Positions 330-63,076 of a stretch of DNA of 64,000 nt are shown here, in pieces; the first letter of the stretch is position 1; each line of letters starts with the position of its first letter. Under the pieces are notes generated by a model. The model saw nothing but the letters and a program-made list of their open reading frames with translations, was not told the origin of the DNA and ran no database searches. The position numbers and the translations under genes are program-made. Source of the DNA: Octopus sinensis (lineage: Eukaryota); assembly GCF_006345805.1 (NCBI RefSeq), contig NC_042999.1, forward strand, positions 127,100,001-127,164,000, read 5' to 3'.

Positions 330-1015
330 AAATTTGGAAATGACATGCTGTACTGCTTGGCATTTACACTAGAAACTCCAATACAAACGTTTCAAAGTGC
401 CGAGTGTCAATCTCAGAACATGTACCACAAGGGATAAAAATCAAACAGCCAGTCAATATCATAGTGTTTGGAATGATGGTGACATCTTCTTACATGGCCT
501 CACACTCAACATGGAAGCCTACATCAAGTGCCTGGAGGAGGCAGTACTGCTCTTCATCAAGAGGATAGCTACTGGACAACCCTATGTCTAACAACAGGAC
601 TCTACACCATGCTGCACAAGCAGGAGAACCCAGTCATGGCTGTCAGACAATTTCTGTGACTACACCACCCCTGACATCTGGCCACCTGACTCCACAGACT
701 GCAACCCCCTTGATTATTATGTGTGGGGCACAGTTGAGTGAGAGACCAACAAAACTCTTAGTAACACCAAAGATGAACTGAAGGCAAGGATTATGGCAGC
801 ATTCACCAACTCAAAAAAGGGGACCATCCAGAAGAATTGCAGGAGATTCCAAAGTCATCTGGAGGTCGTGTTTGAAGCCAATGGCAATTTTATTGAATAA
901 ATTTACTCTTTAGTATTTCAAGATAATTTTATGTAATTTTGGTAAATATATCTGAGATGTCATTGTTATTTTCCTTTTTGCATAAATTTAGACGACAGTT
1001 TTTTACTCCACCATG
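330..1015 (+). mobile_element. Decayed maT/DD37D-type Tc1/mariner transposon, 3' part
   Basis: Broken frames read YV*QQDSTP...WLSDNFCDYTTPDIWPPDSTDCNPLDYYVWGTVE (QQD...WPPxSPDxNPLD motif). It ends in a TIR-like segment ...ctccaccatg followed by TA in a microsatellite. Confidence 0.75.
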
Positions 1016-1550
<535 letters not shown>

Positions 1551-2337
1551 GAGGCATGTTTTAGTTTTAGTTTCCATCTACAAAATCTGTTCACAAGGCT
1601 TTGGTAGACTTAGGGCTGTAGTAGAAGACATGCAGTGGAACTGAACCTGAAATCACTAGGTTGGAAAGTGCAAAAAACATTCAGTGATAATAATAACATG
1701 ATGATAGGGAGAGAATTCTATTCCATCACATGAACATTTCTCAATGCTGCTATTAGTAACTATAATAAAACTAAAACCATTCCATTCAGTCCCTCTGGCA
1801 TGAAGAGATACCACAGAAATCTCTTGTTTCTCATTTAACTAGAAATAGAATGAATAAAACAATATTAAAAGGGAGAGAGAATGGACTGATGTCAGAGTCA
1901 AACAAACATGACTAAAGGTTAGACTTTGTACAATACCAAGAAAGGGTCCTGGCTCAAGGGAATATATGAAATGACTATGTCTTTGAGTGAATTATAGAAA
2001 TTCTGCATCATTGACCTTCCCTTTCTTTGTGTTGACTTTACTGTTGTGAGTGTGTATATGTGTTCTGAAGAAGCGAAAGAATTATGTACACACAGCTAAT
2101 TAGTGTTGTTGTAAATGTAAGAAAGAAACCACTTGATTTCAGTCATAAATTGAAACTTGAAAACTTAGAAATACTAATATAACTAACTGGCACTCCATCA
2201 GTTACGATGACAAGGGTTCCAGCTGATCCAATCAACAGAAAAGCCTGCTCGTGAAATTAATGTGCATATTTTGGAAAAAAAAAATCTTTGTGGCATTAGG
2301 AAATATGTAGAACATTGTGATATCAGTGAGTGAAATA

Positions 2338-2660
2338 AGCACTTTATTGGTTATGATGATGAGGTTTCCAGTTGATCTAGTCAACAGAACAGCCTCTCAT
2401 GAAATGAACGTGCAAGTGGCAGACCACTTCACAGACATTTGTACCCTTAACGTAGTTCTCAGGGAGATTCAGTATGACACAGAGTGTGACATGGCTGGCC
2501 CTTTGAAATACAGGTACCACTCATTTTTGCCAGCTGAGTGGACTGGAGAAACGTGAAAATAAAGTGTCTTACTCAAGGACATAGCGCATCACTGAGAATT
2601 GAACTCATGACCTTAGGATCATGAGCTGAATACCCTAACTACTAAGCCACGTGCCTTCAC
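2338..2660 (-). mobile_element. tRNA-derived SINE, family A
   Basis: Reverse complement starts aaggcacgtggcttagtagttaggg...gagttcaattc (A/B boxes), then gtccttgagtaagacacttt. Similar copies at 44713-45033(-) and 51437-51706(-); tail fragment at 2188-2266. Confidence 0.8.
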
Positions 2661-2999
2661 ATATATCAAGTGGAGATTTAAATGGAAAGCTCAGAACAGA
2701 AGTTAGTGAGAAGGCATGAGAAAGAAAGGATGGATGGTACAGACTGACAGAATGAGTGAAAGACAGATACATAGACAGAGAGACAGAGACACAGAAAAAG
2801 AAGGAGAGAGGGAGAGAGAGAGAGAGAGTGAAAGAGAGAAAGTAGAGAAAAAGTGGTAGAGAATAGGAGAAATTTAACAAAATTTTTTATTACTAGAAAG
2901 TTGAATACTGCGAAATGCATGGTACTGTAAGACCTCAAATAGCTCTGATCTAAAACTCTCACATCAAGAATTTCTATAATAATGGTTTTCCTTAATATT

Positions 3000-3216
3000 A
3001 GTTTCAAATTTTTGGCACAAGGCCAGCAATTTGGGGGGAAGGAATAAGTCGACTACACCAACCCCCAGAACTCAACCGGTATTTATTTTATTAACCCTGA
3101 AAAAATGAAGGAAAAGTCACCCTTGGTGGAATTTGAACTCAGAACACAAAGATGGACGAAATGCTGCTAAGTATTTTGCCTGGCATGCTAACAATTCATG
3201 CCAGCTTGCCACTTTA
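3000..3216 (-). mobile_element. tRNA-derived SINE, family C (Nin-domain-like core)
   Basis: Matches 43055-43287 and 14730-14940 (gaatttgaactcagaac, aaagtcaac/ttcatc core). Confidence 0.75.
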
Positions 3217-3244
3217 ATGGTTTTCTCAAATACTAATAATAGCA

Positions 3245-3430
3245 AAATCATTAGCATACCAGGCAAAATGCTTAGCAGTATTTCATCTGTCTTTGCATTC
3301 TGAGTTCAAATTCCTCCAAGGTTGACTTTGCCTTTCATCATTTCAGAGTCAATAAAACAAGTACCAACTGAGCACATTGGGGTCGATGTAACCAACGAAA
3401 TTGCTGGCCTTGTGCCAAAACTTGAAAGCT
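3245..3430 (+). mobile_element. SINE family C copy, inverted relative to 3000-3216
   Basis: ttctgagttcaaattcc...gactttgcctttcatc...gtaccaact...ggggtcgatgta. Confidence 0.75.
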
Positions 3431-3873
3431 ACATTATTGTCCAACCAAAGCTACTATCAAATTAGAGCAATCTCCACTGATTTGTCAATCCACCAACTAA
3501 AGATACCATTGTCATTATCATTGATCAATATCCATTTTTTTGTGTTTGCATGGGTCAGAGGAAATTCACCGTGGCAGGTTTTCTGTAATACCAGATGCCT
3601 TCTCCTGTTGCTTCACCTGTTTCTGAGCAATGTAACATTTCTCCATGGCCAGACATATTTTTGTAGGAGATTGTAAATAAGGGAACTGCTTGTATGTAGG
3701 AGACACTTGTTTACAATAATTGCCTACTATGAAGACAAGGGGACACAAACACAAACACTTCAGCCTCCACATATATATGTATATATATATACAGTAATAC
3801 ACACACACACATGCACACACACACACATGCACACACACACACATACACACACACACACATGCATACACACAGT

Positions 3874-4100
3874 GGAGGCACATGGCTCAGTGGTTAGAGT
3901 GTTGGACACATGATCATAAGATTGTGGTTTCAATTCCTGGACCAGGTGATACATTGTGTTCTTGAGCAAGACATTTCATTTCATGTTGCTTCAGTCCACT
4001 CAGCTGTAATGGAATGGTATCCCATCCAGATAGGGAATATATATGCCATGGATGCCAGGAAACTAGCCCTTATGAATTGGGATGACTCAAGAAGGTAACT
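3874..4100 (+). mobile_element. tRNA-derived SINE, family A
   Basis: ggaggcacatggctcagtggttagag head; ttgtgttcttgagcaagacatttc; cagtccactcagctg. Confidence 0.75.
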
Positions 4101-4679
4101 TTACGTATCTTTTTGCACACACATGCACTCACACACACACACACACACATGCAGACACACGCACACACACACATACCTATGCACACACACGTATGCACAT
4201 GCACATACCACACACACACATGTATAAATATGGCAGGCTTCTCTCAGTTTCTGCCTACCAAATCCGCTCACATGGCTTTAGTTGGCCTGGAGCTATGATA
4301 GAAGACACCTGCTGAAGGTGCCATGATGTGGAATAGAACCCCAAAATCACAAGAATAGGAAGTAACTTTTTAACAATGATTCGTCAATCCATCAACCAAA
4401 GATGCCAGATATAAGCAAAATATTGGAAGTTAGGCTATACTCAGAGACACACAAAAAAAAAATACAGAAGAATGTTCAACTCAAAAGGAGGTGCTCCAGT
4501 ATGGCCTTAGCTATGGTGGCTAAAACAAATTAAAAAAGTGAAGAATTCTATATGGTGCTGAAGTTCAGTGAAGTTGGTGTTAAAAGTGATGAATGGTGTT
4601 TGAGAATGAACAAAAGAGGTGAAGTAAGAAACTGTTTAGTAATTCTGAAAAATTGTTTTAACACTAAAGATACTCAGTG

Positions 4680-4776
4680 TTTCTCTCTCTTTCTCTTTCT
4701 CTTTCTCTTTCTCTCTCTTTCTTTCTCTTTCTCTCTCTCTCTCTCTCTCTCAATCCCTCACACACACACACACACA

Positions 4777-4814
<38 letters not shown>

Positions 4815-5110
4815 TACACATATACACAAATCTACTCACGAATATGTACAGCTCAGACTCTCAATATGAGTGTTCTAAGGATAATGTTCATTTGAAAATA
4901 CCACTGCCGCTGCCGCTGCCGCCACCACCACCACCACTACAAGAACCGCCACCACCGCCATAGGCACCCTCCCCCACAGGCACCACTGCCACTATCAATA
5001 CCACTACCACCACCACCACCACCACCACTACCACAGGCACTGCCACCACTACCACCACACTGCCACCACCACTACCACCACCACAGGCACCATCATCATC
5101 ACCAGCATTG
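4680..5110. repeat. (TC)n, (CA)n and (CCA/CCG)n simple repeats
   Basis: Directly visible; the source of the Gly/Val-rich ORF 4888-5175. Confidence 0.9.
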
Positions 5111-5311
5111 CCAACTATATGATATATCACTATTGAAAAATCTAATATTATTACTTCTGCTTGACTTTCTTCCATTTCTTGTCAAACTACCAATCACACG
5201 TTGATATTTTGTCAATGCCAATGTTAATTTTTGTCATCATTAATGTTAGAGAAAAATTATTCCTATTACGGGTAAGGGGCCAGAAATTTGATGGGAAGAG
5301 TAATAGTTTAA

Positions 5312-5539
5312 ACCGTTTAGAATTTAATCTGACCATATCTGGCCAAAATATTCTACCTATTTTATGTTCAAACTGACCAGATCCAGACTTTCACACCTAT
5401 CATATAATGCCATATTAAAAATAAGTAATCACATCATAGAAATCTTGAAGCTATGAAATAATTAATTCAAAACATTATTAATTCAAACAAAGTGACTTAA
5501 TAAGCATTATATTTGACAGATTATCTGTATGTTAAAGGG
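5312..5539. mobile_element. piggyBac-like MITE inserted in a SINE
   Basis: TTAA at 5308-5311 and 5540-5543; ends ccgtttagaatt.../...tatgttaaaggg resemble CCCTTTAGCA...TGCTAAAGGG TIRs. Confidence 0.6.
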
Positions 5540-5600
5540 TTAAATTAAACCCCAGTATGTGACTGGTGCTTTATTTTATTGATCTCACAGGGATAAAAGT

Positions 5601-5903
5601 GAAGGCACATGGCCTAGTGGTTAGAGGGGTGGATTTACGGTCGAGGAATTGTAGGTTTGAATCTCAGACAGGGTGTTTGTATGTGTTTATGAGTGAAATA
5701 CCTAAGCTCCATGCAGTTTTGGCAGAAGGTAATGGCAAACTTCTGCTGACTCTTTCGACACAACTTTCTCTCACTCTTTTCTCCTAAATCTAGCAGCTCA
5801 CCTGTGACAGAATGGTGTCCCATCGAGGTGGGGAACCTAAATGCCAATGAAACCAGGAAACCAACTCTTATGAGTCAGGCATGGCTTGAGAAGGAACAAA
5901 CAA
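5601..5903 (+). mobile_element. tRNA-derived SINE (family A-related variant)
   Basis: Near-colinear with 39317-39618 (ggcacatggcctagtggttagag...gcagaaggtaatgg...gaaggaacaaa). Confidence 0.8.
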
Positions 5904-6041
5904 CACAGGGGAAAAAGGTAAAGTTGGCCCTGGCAGGATCTGAATTCAGAATGAAAAGAGCTGAATAAATAGCAAGAGGTATTTTGTTCAATCCCCTAAC
6001 AATTCTGTAAACCCACTGCCCTGATAAAATTTAAGGATAAT

Positions 6042-6454
6042 CATGTGTGTATAAATATAAACAAACTTACATTTGTTTTTATTAGAAGCATTGAAATGTG
6101 TATTGTATGATACAAACAAGAATATGATATTTTTCAAACGCATTATTGCTGTACCCTTACAAGGTGAAAGAAGTTGTCAACAAACAGCCATGGGACTTGA
6201 ACCCACATCCCCCAAGACTCTGGCTGAATGCTTTACCATTAAGCTAAACTGCTCACTGACAATTTCATCCACCGATTTAGATGCTAAATAGCTTATTGAA
6301 CAACCATGTGTGAATAAATATAAACAAACTTATATTTGTTATATATATTAGAAGTATTGAAATGTATATGGAAATGCACTCAGCCAGTGTCTTAGGGATG
6401 TGGGTTCAAATCCCATGGCTGTTTGTTGACAACTTTTTCTGCCTTGTAAGGGTA
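6042..6454 (-). mobile_element. Non-autonomous element carrying a tRNA-Thr-like sequence, with direct and inverted duplications
   Basis: Direct repeat 6042-6105/6305-6368 (period about 263); inverted arms 6152-6231/6376-6454; tRNA A/B boxes on the minus strand at about 6183-6255; homologous to 41041-41320. Confidence 0.7.
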
Positions 6455-7928
6455 ATTTACCCATTATTTCTGCTGTTTTAAGGATAATATCCGGGTATAA
6501 ATGGTCTTAAGGTATTTTAATATCATTTTGTTTGTTTACTTGATACCCTAATGTCATGAAGAAGCAAAGTATTGTGTTACATATCTGGAAAACATTGTTG
6601 TCTATAATGGCGGTATTGTTGTCATTGTTGTTCTTTAATTCCAGGTCAAGCATACAAGCAGTGAACATCCTGTCCTTTTAAGTTTACACTATCTTATGGT
6701 TCCTTTCCTTATTCATGATAACACGATGTGATTTGAAAGAGCTTCGACTGTTCTACTGATATTTGTAGTATGTTGAGTGACTGCATAGAGGTGGCCTTGG
6801 CTCATTGGATATTGGGCTTCTTTATAGACTCACTACACCAGAGGTAAAACAAATAGGAAAGTAAGGGCAGTTGCTTTTGGTACAGTTTCCTCAGAGGCAG
6901 CTATCCTATGCACAAGTGTAACCTCTCATCCCTACTAATTAAAATACGAACCTTCTAGAGCAGGCATTGGTACACTTTTTCAAGAAATGGGCCACATGAG
7001 ACTCGGTTCATCATCAGGCGGCCACACTACTAAAAAATTTCAAGTTAATTTTTCTTTGGTATGCTGTTCAGAAAGTCCCTTGGTCGATAGTTTGCTTATG
7101 GCTGTTGTAGAGTATCTCTGCCTTTCAGGTACCGAGAATCTTTGCTATGTGACTGCAGGACATAGAGATAATCTTGCTGGTTTACTGCATAGAAACTCTC
7201 TCCCTATGACACATCCTATAATGTAGTTTGAAGAGGGAACCCACTTTTTGCACTGAGAAGAAAGACTAAGGGCACATTTGAAGTAAAGTGGCTGGGAAAT
7301 GGATTCATATCTACATATTTCCATGTTTTGCTTAAAGAAGTTAACACATTTCTGTAGCATTGCCTTTCAAGTTTGAGTTCGAATCACAATAACAAGCTTA
7401 GCTGTTATATCACCACTACAACCACTACTATCACACATTATATCCATCATCCTACCAAACACCACTAACATTATTATTATCATCATTGCTGATACCCTTA
7501 TCATGAGCACCATCATCATTATCATCATCATCATTGTTGTGATTCTTATCATAATGAAACTAAAACCAGAGACTTTAAATAGAAGATCTGTGTTATACTT
7601 TCTACCCAACTTCATAGATGACATTGCAATCATGAAATCATGAATGTATGTACAATATTACACTGTTTCACATATGTAAAGTACTTTACCACTTTCTGAA
7701 CAGAAACCAAATGAAACTAGTATTTCATTTGACATCCATGCACTGATGACTCATATGCAATCTTCCTTTTCCGCATATCTTTCTCTGTATACTCAAGTTA
7801 TTTTATGTAGTCATCATCATCATCATCGTTTAGTGTCCGTTTTCCATGCTAGCATGTAGTTTCAGTAAATAGTAAATAGCAAAATCAATTTAAAACAACA
7901 ACTAAAAATAGTATGTTTTTTTACTAAA

Positions 7929-8312
7929 AGGTGCAGGTATGGCTGAGTGGTTAAGAAGCTTGTTTCTGGACAATGTGACCATGGGTTCAGTTCCACTGCA
8001 TGGCACCTTAGGCAAATGCCTTCTGATTAAAACTTTGTGAGTGGATTTGATAAATGGAAACTGAAAGAAGCCTATTGTGTGTGTGTGTGTATGTGTGTGT
8101 CTTTGTGTTTATGTTTGTTGTCTTCTCACCACCACTTGACAACCAGTGTTGGTTTGTTTACATCCCTATAACTTAGGCAGTTTTGCAAAAGAGACTGATA
8201 AAATAAGTATTAGGCTTAAAAATAAGTACTGGAGTCAATTTATTTGACTAAAACCCTTCAAGGAAGTGCCCCAGCATGGCCACAGTCTAGTGACTGAAAC
8301 AAGGAAAAGAGA
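7929..8312 (+). mobile_element. tRNA-derived CORE-like SINE, family B
   Basis: ggtgcaggtatggctgagtggttaag head; cactgcatggcaccttaggcaa core; internal (TG)n; ccagcatggccacagtc...gactgaaacaag tail; same family as 32776-33180. Confidence 0.8.
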
Positions 8313-8589
8313 AATGTTAACATTGATTTCTTTTGTTTAGACACAAAGTTGATTCTTGTCAGGAAATGTAAGGGACTGAATACAGTTAAGTATATTACTT
8401 ATTTTATGTTTGATAAAAAGAAAAAAGAAGAAAAAGAAAAAAGAAGAAAAAGAACAAATGCAAGACAAAATTAACCCTTGCAGGATTTGAACTCAGGAAA
8501 CAGAGGGACAAGTAAAAATACTATTGGACTATTCACAGCATTTAATACATCAACTCACTGCATTTGTTGTCAGCTCAGAAGTTAGTATG

Positions 8590-8883
8590 GCTCAGATGGA
8601 AGTCATCATCAACATCAAGGCCGAGTTGGTAGCCAAGTTCAAGGAGGCGATCAATGACCTTCCCTGAGACAATATAAGGAATGCATGTACCAGATTCTAA
8701 AGCCATCTTGAGGCCATGGTGGAAGCTGAGGGCAGCTACTATGAGTAAACTGTTATCTCCTAGCCATAAGCTAGTGGATATTTTTTCATCTCTTAAAATA
8801 CTTCTTTTTTTATATTTGGGATGTGATATTGTGCTTTTATTTCTTTCTATGCAAACTGTCAAATTAAATCTGAACAACCTGTA
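8590..8883 (+). mobile_element. maT/DD37D-type transposon, C-terminal remnant and right end
   Basis: Reads KAELVAKFKEAINDLP*DNIRNACTRF*SHLEAMVEAEGSYYE*, similar to the C-terminus at 770-900; ends ...caacctg-TA. Confidence 0.55.
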
Positions 8884-15981: not shown

Positions 15982-15983
<2 letters not shown>

Positions 15984-16768
15984 GAGAAGCTCAGGACTCA
16001 AAGCAGAAACAGAGGGATTTTTAATTGCAGCACAAGACCAGAGCCTCCCCACCAGAAATTACCAAAAACATGTAATGAAAAGAAATATTACAAGTAACTG
16101 CAGAATATGTGGAGATGGACAAGAAACAATAAATCATATTATCTCTAGCTGCCCAGTCCTGGCTAAGAAGGAATATATTCACAGACATGACAGAGTTGGA
16201 ACCTACATACATTGGAAGCTATGCCAACATTATGGAATAACAACAGAAAAAAGATGGTATAGGCACACACCAGAAAAGGTCACAGAAAACGAGAAAGCAA
16301 CCATACTCTGGGATATGCCGATACACACAGATAGAGAAATTAAGGCCAACAGACCAGATATAGTTGTCAGAGATCATGAAGAAAAAAAATGCTTTCTAAT
16401 TGATGTATCAATACCGGCAGATGACAACGTGTCTCTAAAAGAAATGGAGAAACTCTCAAAATACAAAGACCTGGAAATAGAGGTAACTAGAATGTGGAAT
16501 CTGAAAACAGAAACAATTCCTATCATAGTAGGTGCATTAGGCATGATAAAAAAATATTCAGACAAATACATAACAAAAACACCAGGACTTACAAACACAT
16601 ATAACATACAGAAAATTGCACTACTAGGCACTGCACACATCCTACGCAGAACACTTTCCATTCAATAACTGTCAGAGCATCACAACAAATCACAGCACAT
16701 ACCCAAGGCACACAGAGCTGCGCTCGGTAGTGAAGTGAAAGCACGCTATAAAAATAAAACTACTGAAC
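15982..16768 (+). mobile_element. R4/Dong-clade non-LTR retrotransposon, 5'-truncated 3' end (CCHC plus restriction-like endonuclease and 3' UTR)
   Basis: ORF 15982-16668: CRIC...ETINHIISSC, RHD, NRPDIVV...LIDVSIP...EKLSKY. The frame is uninterrupted and the 3' UTR is followed by (AAT)n. Confidence 0.9.
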
Positions 16769-52110: not shown

Positions 52111-52321
52111 AGAAAGTAAAAGCAAAGCTCTGCTTGAAAAATAATTGTTATTTCTTCTGCATATAGTGCATTGACATACTTCAATTTCTGGATTTTACTC
52201 TGGGACAGAAAGTTGATATTTCTGAAAAAGACTGAAGTCCAAGCAATTTTTATTAAAAGAACTATCTCAGAAAGTCTGAAGAAACTGTACTTCTGATTAA
52301 CATGCAAGCAGCATATTATTT

Positions 52322-53632
52322 ATGATTTACCAAAGACTTGAGGTATTTCGTGTTGCAAGACGGTGTGTGAGAGAGAATCGTGATGTGGTAGGAGAGAAAT
52401 GTGTTCGCATGGATGATGGTTCACTTGCGCTAAATGAGGATGCAAAGAGAGAGGTTTGGAAACACCACTATGAAAGGTTGTTGAATAAAGAAAATGAATG
52501 GGATAAAGAGAGTCTGCCGAATGTCAACCCAACAGAGGGACCAGCTATCCGAGTTGACAGTTCTTTGGTAGTTAAGGCAATTAGGAGCATGAAGACAGGA
52601 AAAGCCCCAGGCCCATCAGGAATTACTGCAGTGATGCTCAAAATATCTGGCAGTGTCGGCTATAGCCTAGTCACCCGTATAGTTAACCAGGTGATACACA
52701 AAGGAGTCATACCCAATGACTGGTGTAGCAGCATAATAGTCAACTGCTACAAAGGTAAAGGTGATGCCCTAGATACGAATAATTACAGAGGTATCAAGTT
52801 GTTGGATCAGGTAATGAAGGTTACGGAGAGGGTCATAGCCCAACTGATAAGGGAGAGAGTCAACTTGGATGAGATGCAGTTTGGTTTCGTGCCAGGGAAA
52901 AGCACCACTGATGCCATATTTCTGGTGAGACAGCTGCAGGAGAAATACCTAGCCAAAGATAAGCCCCTGTACCTGGCTTTCATTGACATGGAGAAAGCCT
53001 TCGACAGGGTCCCCCGATCCCTTATCTGGTGGTCAATGAGGAAACTAGGGATAGATGAATGGCTGGTGAGAGCTGTGCAAGCCATGTACAGGGATGCTGT
53101 AAGTAAGGTTAGGGTTGGCAACGTGTACACTGAAGAATTCCGGGTAGAGGTTGGGGTCCACCAAGGTTCAGTCCTCAGCCCCCTCCTATTTATCATAGTC
53201 CTCCAGGCAATTACAGAGGAATTCAAGACAGGATGCCCCTGGGAGCTCCTATATGCTGATGACCTTGCTCTAATTGCTGAGTCACTATCAGAACTGGAGG
53301 AGAAGTTTCAGGTGTGGAAGGAGGGATTAGAATCGAAGGGCCTTAGAGTCAACCTAGCTAAAACCAAAGTCCTAATAAGTAGGAAGGTAGACAAATCACA
53401 AATGCCTTCAGGTAGATGGCCCTGCTTGATCTGTAGAAAAGGCGTAGGTAGAAACTCTATAAGATGTACCCAGTGTAAGCTATGGACACATAAGAGGTGC
53501 AGCAATGTCAAAGGAAGGCTAACTGGGAAGATAATTTTTGTATGTGGCAGATGCTCAGGAGCAATAAACACTGAAAATCTGCAGAAAACAACTTCCGTCA
53601 CTTTCCGGGGGGAAAAAATTAGAAGTAGTTGA
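52322..53632 (+). pseudogene. RTE ORF2 reverse transcriptase (truncated, frameshifted)
   Basis: Canonical non-LTR RT motifs in a 436-aa open frame; lacks the APE endonuclease. Confidence 0.9.
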
Positions 53633-55492: not shown

Positions 55493-55606
55493 CCTGCTCG
55501 CTTAGCCAGTGGGGTGGCGTCATTCGAAGGCTAAAACAATGCGAACGCATTGTGACCAGCGATGTGGCAACATCTGATGGTCTGGTCGGTCACGTGATCA
55601 CGTGAT
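55490..55606 (+). repeat. Short interspersed repeat, also present at 1-58
   Basis: gcattgtgaccagcgatg...catctgat...ctggtcggtcacg shared with the window start. Confidence 0.7.
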
Positions 55607-55724
55607 ATATATATATATATATACAATTAAGGGCTCCTAAATAAAGATGCCGAGTGCTGGGAACACAAAAAGGGGATGAATTTATCGAGAGTGAAAATCA
55701 AAAACATTTACCGATAACTTTAAC

Positions 55725-55800
55725 AACTCGTACCGCGGTTTCTGCTTCTTTCTAGCAAAACACAGAATATGTTTGCTAAGGCTAGCTTCATCAGTGAGTC
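55725..55800 (-). ncRNA. Type I hammerhead ribozyme (inverted copy)
   Basis: Reverse complement gactca-CTGATGA...GAAAC-cgcg-GTA-cgagtt, with palindromic stem III accgcggt. Confidence 0.72.
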
Positions 55801-56207
55801 GCCTGAATTTAATTGAGGTCTGCAGCGATGTGGGGCTATATGTTAAACCCGACTACTAGCAGATCTTAACTTTTCAAATCTCTGCGCAGACGCAAAATTT
55901 ACACGGGCATGCCGGGAAGAATTTTACGAATAAATTCATCATGTAGTATGCGAATATATTTTTCTATATGAATATTATTTTTGTCTCATGACTAATTCGT
56001 CTTTTGTGCTGGGCACCTGGTAGTAAATAATATTACTACCCTTCTTGTTTATATTCGCATACTACATGATGAATTTATTCGTAAAATTCTTCCCGGCATG
56101 CCCGTGTAAATTTTGCGTCTGCGCAGAGATTTGAAAAGTTAAGATCTGCTAGTAGTCGGGTTTAACATATAGCCCCACATCGCTGCAGACCTCGATTAAA
56201 TTCAGGC

Positions 56208-56283
56208 GACTCGCTGATGAAGCTAGCCTTAGCAAACATATTCTGTGTTTTGCTAGAAAGAAGCAGAAACCACGGTACGAGTT
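56208..56283 (+). ncRNA. Type I hammerhead ribozyme
   Basis: gactcg-CTGATGA(56214)-agct[tagcaaa/tttgcta hairpin]agca-GAAAC(56266)-cacg-GTA-cgagtt. Confidence 0.75.
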
Positions 56284-56537
56284 GTTAAAGTTATCGGTAA
56301 ATGTTTTTGATTTTCACTCTCGATAAATTCATCCCCTTTTTGTGTTCCCAGCACTCGGCATCTTTATTTAGGAGCCCTTAATTGTATAACCACATGAATA
56401 ATATTTTTCTATATGAATAATATTTTTGTCTCATGACTAATTCGTCTTTTGTGCTGGGCACCTGGTAGTAAATAATATTACTACCCTTCTTGTTTATATT
56501 CGTATATATATATATATATTATATATATATATATATG

Positions 56538-61300: not shown

Positions 61301-61459
61301 TGTATATTATATATATATAATGTATATAATACGAGAATTTTAATGGAGATAACCTGCAGTATATAGTACAACATTTTTGTCTCCGTATATGAGCTAAGTA
61401 TTAATAAAACACCATACTGCTTCAGCACATTCATGAGCCTCTATGTCAGTGCTGGGAAG

Positions 61460-63076
61460 AGGGTACAGTCCCTCAGGATATGCGGGATGCTAACATCATT
61501 ACGCTTTACAAAAACAAAGGTGACCGTGGTGATTGTAACAATTACCGTGGAATACCTCTTCTAAGCACTGTTGGAAAGGCCTCTGCTCGCATTATCCTGT
61601 CCAGGCTGCAACTGCTTGCTTCTCGAATTTATCCAGAATCGCAGTGTGGCTTTAGAAGCAGATCAACTATTGACATGATATTCTCCATACGCCAACTTCA
61701 GGAGAAGTCCAGAGAGCAGAAAATGCCATTATATATGGCCTTCATTGATCTGACAAAGGCCTTTGACTTGGTAAGTAGAAAAGGCCTCTTCATCCTGCTC
61801 CAAAAAATCAGATGTCCACCAAAGCTGCTGAGGATCATCACATCTTTCCATGATGATATGCAAGGCACCATACAGCACAATGGTTCAACATCATCCGCCT
61901 TCCAAATAAAAAATGGGGTAAAGCAAGGTTGTGTCCTTGCTCCTACATTATTTGGCATCTTCTTCTCGCTGCTGCTGTCACATGCCTTTGTGACATCAGA
62001 TGATGGAATGTTTCTGCACAGTAGAAGTGATGGGAAAATGTTCAATCTCTCGCGTCTGTGTGCCAAGACCAAAATCAGAAGCGTCCTGATCAAGGAGATG
62101 CTATTTGCTGATGATGCCGCTCTGGTATCACACACAGAAGAAGCCCTACAAAGGCTCATCAACTGTTTTGAGCAAGCATGTGGCAACTTTGGCTTAGTTA
62201 TCAGCCTCAAGAAGACCAACATCATGGGTCAGGCTACATCGACCATCCCAAACATACATATTGGAGACCACAGACTACAGGAGGTGGAGAAGTTTACCTA
62301 TCTTTGCTCTACCGTCACCTACAACCTATCTCTTGATACTGAGCTCAATATATGCATTGGCAAGGCAGCTGCTGTGATGGCTCAACTCTCCAAACGGGCA
62401 TGGGACAACAATAAGCTGACCAAGACCACAAAAATGAAGATTTACCAGGCATGTGTACTTAGCACTCTACTGTATGGAAGTGAGACTTGGACGCCATACA
62501 CATGCCATACGACGCCATACGTCGCCTAAATATCTTTCACCTGCGCAGTCTCCGGAAAATCTTTCGCATCAAATGGCAGAATCATGTACCCAACAAGCAA
62601 GCAGGAATACCAAGCATGTTTACACTCCTCACACAAAGACGTATGAGATGGCTTCGACATGTTATCCGTATGGAAGATGGCAGAATCCCCAAGGACATAC
62701 TCAACGGAGAGCTTGCTAGGGGCACTAGGTCTGTGGGAAGACCGTTCTTACGATACAAGGATGTTTGCAAAAGAGACATGAATGCTTGCAACATTAATAT
62801 TACCAACTGGTAAAAGAGGGAACATAAAGGAGTGAAATAGAGGGAGAGGAGAAATGGAAAGACAAGAAAAGACGTCAACAAGAAGGTATGACATTACAAC
62901 CAGCCAGGCAAAGTCTTCGCTACATTTGCGGCACCTGCCAGAGGGAGTGTTTGTCCAGGATAGGACTACACAGCCACAGCAGGAGATGTATTAGGACATG
63001 AAATGTAAAAGTCCGACTAGATTATTTTATGTGCAACTCCATTGTCTCCCGAGACAAAAAGGATGCCAACAACAAT
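61460..63076 (+). mobile_element. RTE (BovB-like) LINE, 5'-truncated, (CAA)n tail
   Basis: ORF 61480-62529: NYRGI, QCGFR, FIDLTKAFD, GVKQGCVLAP, FADD. Then RWLRHVIRM...GRP.LRYKD and a C-terminal C2H2 YICGTCQRECLSRIGLHSHSRRC. Confidence 0.93.

Follow-up and report, generated by a model that had tools for sequence, protein, structure and literature searches.

The closest described systems are animal retrozymes and Penelope-like elements (PLEs). In the passages compared, the non-LTR retrozymes of animals (Cervera & de la Pena 2020, PMC7229834; Li, Clavereau & Pollet 2026 preprint) are non-coding tandem units of a few hundred bp (range 150-450 bp) with low GC, which carry one type I hammerhead per unit with a palindromic stem III and occur as dimers to multimers in genomes that hold PLEs; a stem III of this kind permits cleavage as a dimer, not as a monomer, according to the relevant part of PMC4209133. 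Proposals of 2014 and 2020 (PMC4209133 and PMC7229834, in the sections considered) have retrozymes mobilised by PLE enzymes from circular templates, with rolling reverse transcription of the circular retrozyme RNA. In the sections of Craig et al. 2021 (PMC8557442) that bear on them, EN+ PLEs of the Neptune/Nematis and Naiad types show partial tandems, an inverted 5'-truncated copy, a tail of 30-40 bp that is often at one end only, and (TA)n targeting; the formation of the tandem and inverted structures is called undefined there. The purified Poseidon PLE protein of the green anole, studied in vitro (Frangieh et al. 2024, PMC11167929) and modelled as a dimer, nicks both DNA strands at AT-rich targets and extends both from two internal starts downstream of the hammerhead that define the tail, priming without homology, with either strand using either site.

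The element described here is of an already known kind, and its insertion footprints are what we add. It shares all the retrozyme features above, with a 445-bp unit at the top of the size range, the four EN+ PLE features, and the two internal starts, the extension of both strands and the AT-rich targets of Poseidon. Unlike the animal retrozymes, it has a stem II that is long and opens with A.A, and its dispersed inverted (TA)n arrays with two fixed ends are not described in the passages compared. It differs from the EN+ PLEs, as the same sections of PMC8557442 present them, in having no ORF, many whole units per arm and a tail of ~111 nt, and from Poseidon in that its two start sites, P and Q, both end in TATA/ATAT matching the target, and in that no insertion has P at both ends. 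We found no PLE twin priming, no retrozymes of this animal group and no such retrozyme footprints in the open literature searched; PMC7229834 and preprint supplements may hold related families. In our preferred reading, which we consider probable, these (TA)n arrays with two fixed 3' ends were made by a PLE-type RT/GIY-YIG enzyme that copied a monomeric RNA circle in a rolling manner.

We analysed a window of 64,000 nucleotides from Octopus sinensis (assembly GCF_006345805.1, contig NC_042999.1, positions 127,100,001 to 127,164,000, forward strand). The initial annotation had reported an inverted repeat at 55620-55958 and 56050-56388; we find both arms, 339 nt each and 99% complementary, and exactly the three differences it gave, all CpG transitions (G/A, at right-arm positions 56194, 56213 and 56272). 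The direct repeat of 102 nt is likewise there (55956-56057 again at 56401-56502, spacing 445, one mismatch), and the + strand holds 547/445 = 1.23 units, against about 1.2 as put forward. With unit position 1 set at window position 55956, the locus runs from a TA tract through unit 433 to 95 (-), 3 nt of microhomology, and unit 1-445 plus 1-~106 (+) to a second TA tract, so that both outer ends are 3' ends of the ribozyme strand. Its features are as follows.

55605..55623, no strand: left (TA)n target tract; by sequence, its last 4 nt (TATA) are common to the Q end of the element
55620..55958, - strand: inverted arm, unit 95 to 433, with its outward 3' end at site Q
55722..55803, - strand: type I hammerhead on the inverted arm, with its cut predicted to follow 55731
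55956..55958, no strand: inversion junction with 3-nt microhomology, a breakpoint unique among 41 inverted loci
55956..56400, + strand: a single complete 445-bp unit, in which no stop-free frame exceeds 56 aa
56205..56286, + strand: type I hammerhead of the forward arm
56205-56213/56278-56286, + strand: stem I of the forward hammerhead
56214-56220, + strand: core CUGAUGA of the forward hammerhead, then stem II
56266-56270, + strand: GAAAC of the forward hammerhead, then stem III and GUA at 56275-56277
56382..56390, + strand: site Q (TTGTATA, unit 427-435), the second preferred 3' end family-wide
56389..56502, + strand: Q-to-P segment of about 111-114 nt, at one end only, which we liken to the one-sided PLE 'tail' as described in the sections considered of PMC8557442
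56464..56485, + strand: hairpin directly upstream of site P, kept with altered sequence in the 433- and 403-bp sister families
56486..56506, + strand: site P (CTTCTTGTTTATAT..., unit 93-106), the near-obligatory 3' end of the family
56503..56536, no strand: right (TA)n target tract

The inverted arm (55620..55958) is likely the second-primed cDNA. The hammerhead claimed for each arm is recognisable in both (CTGATGA...GAAAC, then CGCG or CACG, then GTA), and the cleavage triplet GUA ends at 56277 as stated; as a refinement, each copy has one helix-breaking CpG change. In the inverted arm, G258>A (window 55795) disrupts the stem I pair adjoining the cut, and in the forward arm, G317>A (window 56272) ruins the stem III palindrome, taking its self-duplex from -14.1 to -3.9 kcal/mol; both changes are unique among about 200 family copies. 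The window copy is a short product of 0.76 + 1.23 turns that gained the CpG changes in both ribozymes later. It is probably a dead end, a point not raised in the initial annotation, since both ribozymes are damaged and there is only one cut site per strand, whereas in 41 of 65 typed loci an arm crosses the cut site at least 2 times.

The 2.72-Gb assembly holds at least 104 insertions of the 445-bp unit, dispersed over many contigs, and the unit search gave at least 222 matches from the best 40 of 957 candidates. The 21-nt 3' core of the ribozyme occurs 244 times in the genome, compared with 0 for its reversed control, which argues that the motif is not chance; P/TA junctions number 72 and Q/TA junctions 83 (controls 0). 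The typed loci are the 40 best matches and the 25 that complete the core-bearing loci of contigs C1-C7; a further 39 were chosen by end motif, with L170 and a second non-inverted copy in L133 excluded. The insertions are tandem arrays (median 2.0 units, maximum 18.3, in the 65 loci), and a TA-rich flank is present on at least one side in 62 of the 65 and on both sides in 52. Coding capacity is low (stop-free frames reach 56 aa at most, those opening with ATG 25 aa), there is no LTR structure, and no ORF was found within or between units in the loci examined. No promoter was found in the unit, which counts against our preferred reading; Pol III boxes are absent, and four T5 runs lie on its ribozyme strand. 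The CpG excess across the family is weak (1.58-fold). Across 104 loci, the description of the element as young, non-coding, hammerhead-bearing, (TA)n-targeted and marked by Penelope-type footprints is borne out. Retrozymes are recognised by dispersed copies with target duplications of >4 bp when present; here copies are dispersed over 104 loci, with a 15-nt duplication at L124. The family is very probably a new member of the animal non-LTR retrozymes, behaving as a non-autonomous PLE.

In assembled contigs from four runs that are not on record as RNA, 27 of the 29 bins of 55920-56400 are covered; no piece spans the inversion junction of the window, an absence that carries no weight. The unit is also covered by contigs from a run listed under a second organism code. 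In two of the runs, which we guess to be RNA, 56400 is bridged to 55956, but tandem DNA yields such a bridge as well.

Sister families of 433 and 403 bp align with the whole unit at 55-71% identity and have homologous end sites. Copies of these sister retrozymes, the 433-bp family with 1245 candidates, lie at L146, L147 and L151; their hammerheads have a canonical G10.1-C11.1 and the palindrome ACUGCAGU, and their P/Q ends lie in (TA)n. Within the 445-bp family, a 9-nt insertion marks an older subfamily (18 of 77 typed loci, mixed in none); the insertion and three substitutions at L137, at first taken as private, are marks of this subfamily. L192 and six other copies of the subfamily have U for C3, stem III ACUGAUCAGU and a GUC triplet, in tandem units.

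Among 5029 candidates of a GIY-YIG search, 150 were scored. They include a young PLE family (L100 type) with a 781-aa RT+GIY-YIG ORF, six copies of which agree at 98.7-100% identity. A 479-aa ORF lies upstream, the elements form partial tandems, and their 3' end is fixed and lies in (TA)n, the target that the family has in common with the unit. The 781-aa protein has the Neptune/Nematis feature of a C-terminal GIY-YIG (residues 685-772) with a CX2-5CxxC linker (CX4CX2C, CGRPNCGIC at residue 647), which at the level of motifs makes the family a candidate member of that clade. Other PLE types are those of L107 and of L205, the latter with a minimal hammerhead in its terminal repeat. The footprints point to mobilisation by a PLE; the young family would be an unproven partner, because the unit shows no DNA similarity to 50 PLE loci (blastn, nhmmer profile) and a pattern search found no hammerhead in the young PLE. 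A 12-nt word common to the unit and an abundant PLE terminal repeat was set aside as chance, being absent in the sister families.

These data bear on whether the unit is a mere pseudo-LTR (pLTR) of a coding PLE, its copies being 5'-truncated. All footprints are PLE-like (PMC8557442, in the sections considered), PLE fragments lie within a few kb of 6 of 105 loci, and frog retrozymes match pLTRs, in 21 of 57 families according to the parts considered of preprint 10.64898/2026.07.22.740005, whereas no pLTR homologue was found here. Against it, as many as 18 units are joined head to tail, and no ORF separates them; the unit flanks an RT+GIY-YIG ORF as a terminal repeat in 0 of 105 loci (part of the family); the nearby PLE fragments are separate, the element being TA-bounded in 5 of those 6 loci; the array at L192 abuts a different PLE terminal repeat; and no similarity to 50 PLE loci was found by blastn or profile, the comparison covering part of the family and 150 of 5029 GIY-YIG candidates. 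We consider a pseudo-LTR origin highly unlikely, and the earlier alternative that all copies are attached to a coding PLE falls with the finding that none of these copies is the terminal repeat of a PLE ORF.

Two PLE loci show unusual structures. At L192 (3776-5020), an array of the older subfamily runs straight into the terminal repeat of a minimal-hammerhead PLE, with no TA at the join, and an inverted copy of this PLE adjoins; the fusion is either a template switch between two RNAs, which would name the partner, or an insertion with target deletion. L100 (1-7565) holds the young PLE with its two ORFs as a tandem of 5935 bp; a TA tract, a separate hammerhead-like motif and a fragment of a short interspersed repeat fall within the period, which suggests capture of flanking DNA.

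The hammerhead has a 9-bp stem I, a long stem II (A.A, then GCU/AGC, then a long distal hairpin) and a stem III formed by the palindrome ACCGCGGU, with a predicted cut after GUA at unit position 322. Its core is near-invariant in about 200 copies. Rfam hammerhead models gave no match at the gathering score or at E<=10, where the only matches were hairpin-type chance ones; the motif assignment therefore rests on pattern and covariation. Across the three families, 6 of 18 pairs changed on both sides, and 91.6% of cells are paired vs. 33-47% when the structure is slid, although the 8 distinct rows come from three lineages and represent few independent events. Within the family, GCU/AGC of stem II changes to GCC/GGC with pairing kept, CGCG of stem III changes to UGAUCA and is still palindromic, and the cleavage triplet stays GUH (GUA, GUC or GUU). 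Covariation in stems I-III across families and compensatory variants within the family indicate, at the level of sequence, that the ribozyme is under selection.

The minimum-energy fold was rejected as the active hammerhead, for in it CUG of the core pairs with CGG of stem III; in the monomer, the active fold is 2.0 kcal/mol costlier than this core-sequestering fold, and the stem III self-duplex reaches -14.1 kcal/mol. Circles of both strands fold mildly better than shuffles (z -1.8 to -3.5). Position 10.1-11.1 is A.A, vs. canonical G-C; this and the U for C3 of the older subfamily may make cleavage weak and count against our preferred reading. In the parts considered of preprint 10.64898/2026.07.22.740005, 8 of 9 frog retrozymes are without in vitro cleavage.

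The substitution distance is 0.0029 within loci, 0.0034 between arms and 0.0184 between loci; units of one insertion thus differ about six times less among themselves than from units at other loci, and the two arms are as close as units of a single arm. At 43 diagnostic columns, three or more differences occur in 3 of 449 within-locus unit pairs vs. 16402 of 20054 pairs between loci. The two arms have the same haplotype in 22 of 24 typed pairs, and in the other two they differ at one column. Four substitutions, each found at a single locus among the 104, are fixed in all 3-7 segments of that locus, three of them in both arms. No indel occurs at unit 321-326 in 214 cut-site passages, and the longest series is that of a 6937-nt arm that crosses the cut site 16 times. 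Template jumping by R2 is expected to leave untemplated letters at the jumps; end-to-end jumping between cut monomers was rejected here, no indel being found in the 214 passages. Rolling reverse transcription of a monomer circle predicts both the haplotype uniformity and the seamless cut site.

Many of the same marks would be left if the same retrozyme and PLE enzyme used an uncut linear multimer of a homogeneous array, the hammerhead being seldom used and circles unneeded, since the anole PLE in vitro uses uncut RNA, even prefers it unprocessed, starts internally and can dispense with the hammerhead (PMC11167929). Such a template accounts for the fixed internal ends, the seamless cut site and, if source arrays are uniform, the single haplotype. 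Fixing new variants in all units, as in the four single-locus cases and with the 9-nt insertion that is unmixed in 77 loci, would however need a one-unit bottleneck; each haplotype would require its own long source array; inherited junctions number 0 of 41; and the ribozyme is kept by compensatory change. We regard a linear multimer as an unlikely template, though it is the rival that deserves most weight.

For frog retrozymes, the favoured model is local amplification (preprint 10.64898/2026.07.22.740005, in the parts considered). Applied here, short PLE-made insertions would have expanded in place by unequal crossover or slippage, which homogenises arrays, and L065, where four variants are repeated in adjacent units, shows a unit duplicated locally after mutation. 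Most variants are either single (177) or fixed (110), however, with 21 in only some units; both inversion arms are often multimeric with private variants in common; and the arrays are young, dispersed and each with its own 5' end. In-place expansion as the general origin is therefore very unlikely in our view. The L065 duplication and the 21 partial variants count against our preferred reading, local duplication explaining few variants, and consensus-building in the assembly, which may have raised the sameness within arrays, also counts against it.

Two sites, P (unit 93-106) and Q (433-435), account for most 3' ends, and none lies at the ribozyme cut (unit 322) in the 65 loci. Of these loci, 41 are inverted, with both 3' ends outward. 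Exactly one end is at P in all 41 (30 P+Q, 11 P with another AT-rich site), a rule reached 0 times in 200000 random re-pairings of ends. It holds in 27 of 27 loci of the complete core-locus list of contigs C1-C7 and in 18 of 19 inverted loci among the further 39, none being P+P, or in 59 of 60 overall; the exception, L179, is inverted without a P end. Non-inverted loci end at P in 19 of 24 cases and elsewhere in 5. L179 and these five loci count against our preferred reading. Complementarity to TA as the only rule for start sites was rejected, as TATA/ATAT at unit 1, 10, 20, 75 and 283 is hardly used. L170, which might have passed for a Q+Q pair, was excluded as a mirrored duplicate: positions 461-8635 of this locus, on a small contig, form a large mirror duplication of ~92% identity, natural or artefact.

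All 41 inversion junctions are different: microhomology is present at 26, inserted letters at 11, and 4 are blunt. Long reads are known to produce artefactual palindromes, and the 6.6-kb mirror at L170 may be one. Yet three CpG transitions distinguish the arms in the window, each of its ends is a different site conserved in the family, and 60 inverted loci have the same build; an assembly or read artefact, which the initial annotation had raised as an alternative, is practically excluded by this family-wide architecture and the 41 different breakpoints. Snap-back (fold-back) synthesis is not the general cause of the palindromes either, because 9 of 41 arm pairs do not nest (judged from BLAST boundaries, allowing 8 nt of tolerance). 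At L124, a target duplication of 15 nt is accompanied by 3-nt microhomology at each end; similar duplications occur in 5 of 65 own flank pairs vs. 11 of 600 mismatched pairs, and the one at L124 alone abuts both ends. Most target duplications are hidden in (TA)n. In L1 twin priming, an inverted 5' part, outward 3' ends, junction microhomology and a target duplication are found together, features that the present element shares. From the non-nesting arms, the varied junctions with microhomology and the L124 duplication, we infer that twin priming from two fixed sites, the first obligatory, best accounts for the palindrome, a reading that the initial annotation had missed. Compared with L1, the second site is largely fixed here and both arms can exceed one template length.

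Arms that start at unit 323-325, the 5' end of the cut RNA, number 4 of 164 (L177 at 4871, L040, L069 and L140), a weak excess over chance (expected 1.1; P 0.03 to 0.18, depending on the interval). Linear cut RNA may thus be copied too, and we count this against our preferred reading.

In that preferred reading, arrays would be transcribed as multimers, in which adjacent hammerheads are predicted to pair via the palindromic stem III and to cut after GUA (unit 322), a lone monomer being predicted to fold with its core sequestered. The monomers would then be ligated into circles, as in known retrozymes, and a PLE endonuclease would nick both strands of a TA tract. The footprints suggest that one strand is extended from site P, behind the conserved hairpin, and that in ~60% of events the other strand is extended as well, mostly from Q, 111 nt upstream. 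They also put the length of each cDNA at 0.1 to 15.6 turns, with scarless passage of the cut site, and point to a joining of the two cDNA ends by microhomology that gives a palindrome with a one-sided tail.

More tentatively, and holding it less likely than not, we suggest that a dimeric PLE enzyme engages one ribozyme-made circle at a P defined by structure, that both its subunits roll from the two nicked strands, the second mostly from Q, and that the retrozyme clade consists of long-lived circles that hijack PLEs by fold. If so, the tandem, inverted, one-sided-tail pattern of all PLE insertions would directly record rolling-circle reverse transcription of the twin kind, and the 445/433/403-bp clade, with the same P and Q, would hijack a hammerhead-less PLE by fold, not sequence.

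The family provides nucleotide-level footprints (an obligatory and an optional start, a single haplotype in each insertion, as many as 16 seamless turns) in the same genome as intact candidate enzymes. It speaks for retrozyme arrays that mostly arise as arrays at insertion, not by later expansion at the site, and the PLE-retrozyme question becomes directly testable with a 445-nt RNA, a 781-aa protein and a (TA)n target.

Other inverted repeat families in (TA)n occur at L102 (6764-7868 and 6370-6650), L103 (6897-8012), L107 (8286-9228) and L104 (8598-9115); they are unrelated or distant, and a 535-bp unit and two others have hammerhead patterns. Elsewhere in the window, the reading frames at 52301-53632, 61408-62529 and 15982-16668 resemble reverse transcriptase or LINE sequences, family labels (reverse-transcriptase-like, LINE-like) that we presume to apply, and a tRNA-like match at 6182-6253 (-), with 37.5 bits, is possibly the head of a short interspersed repeat.
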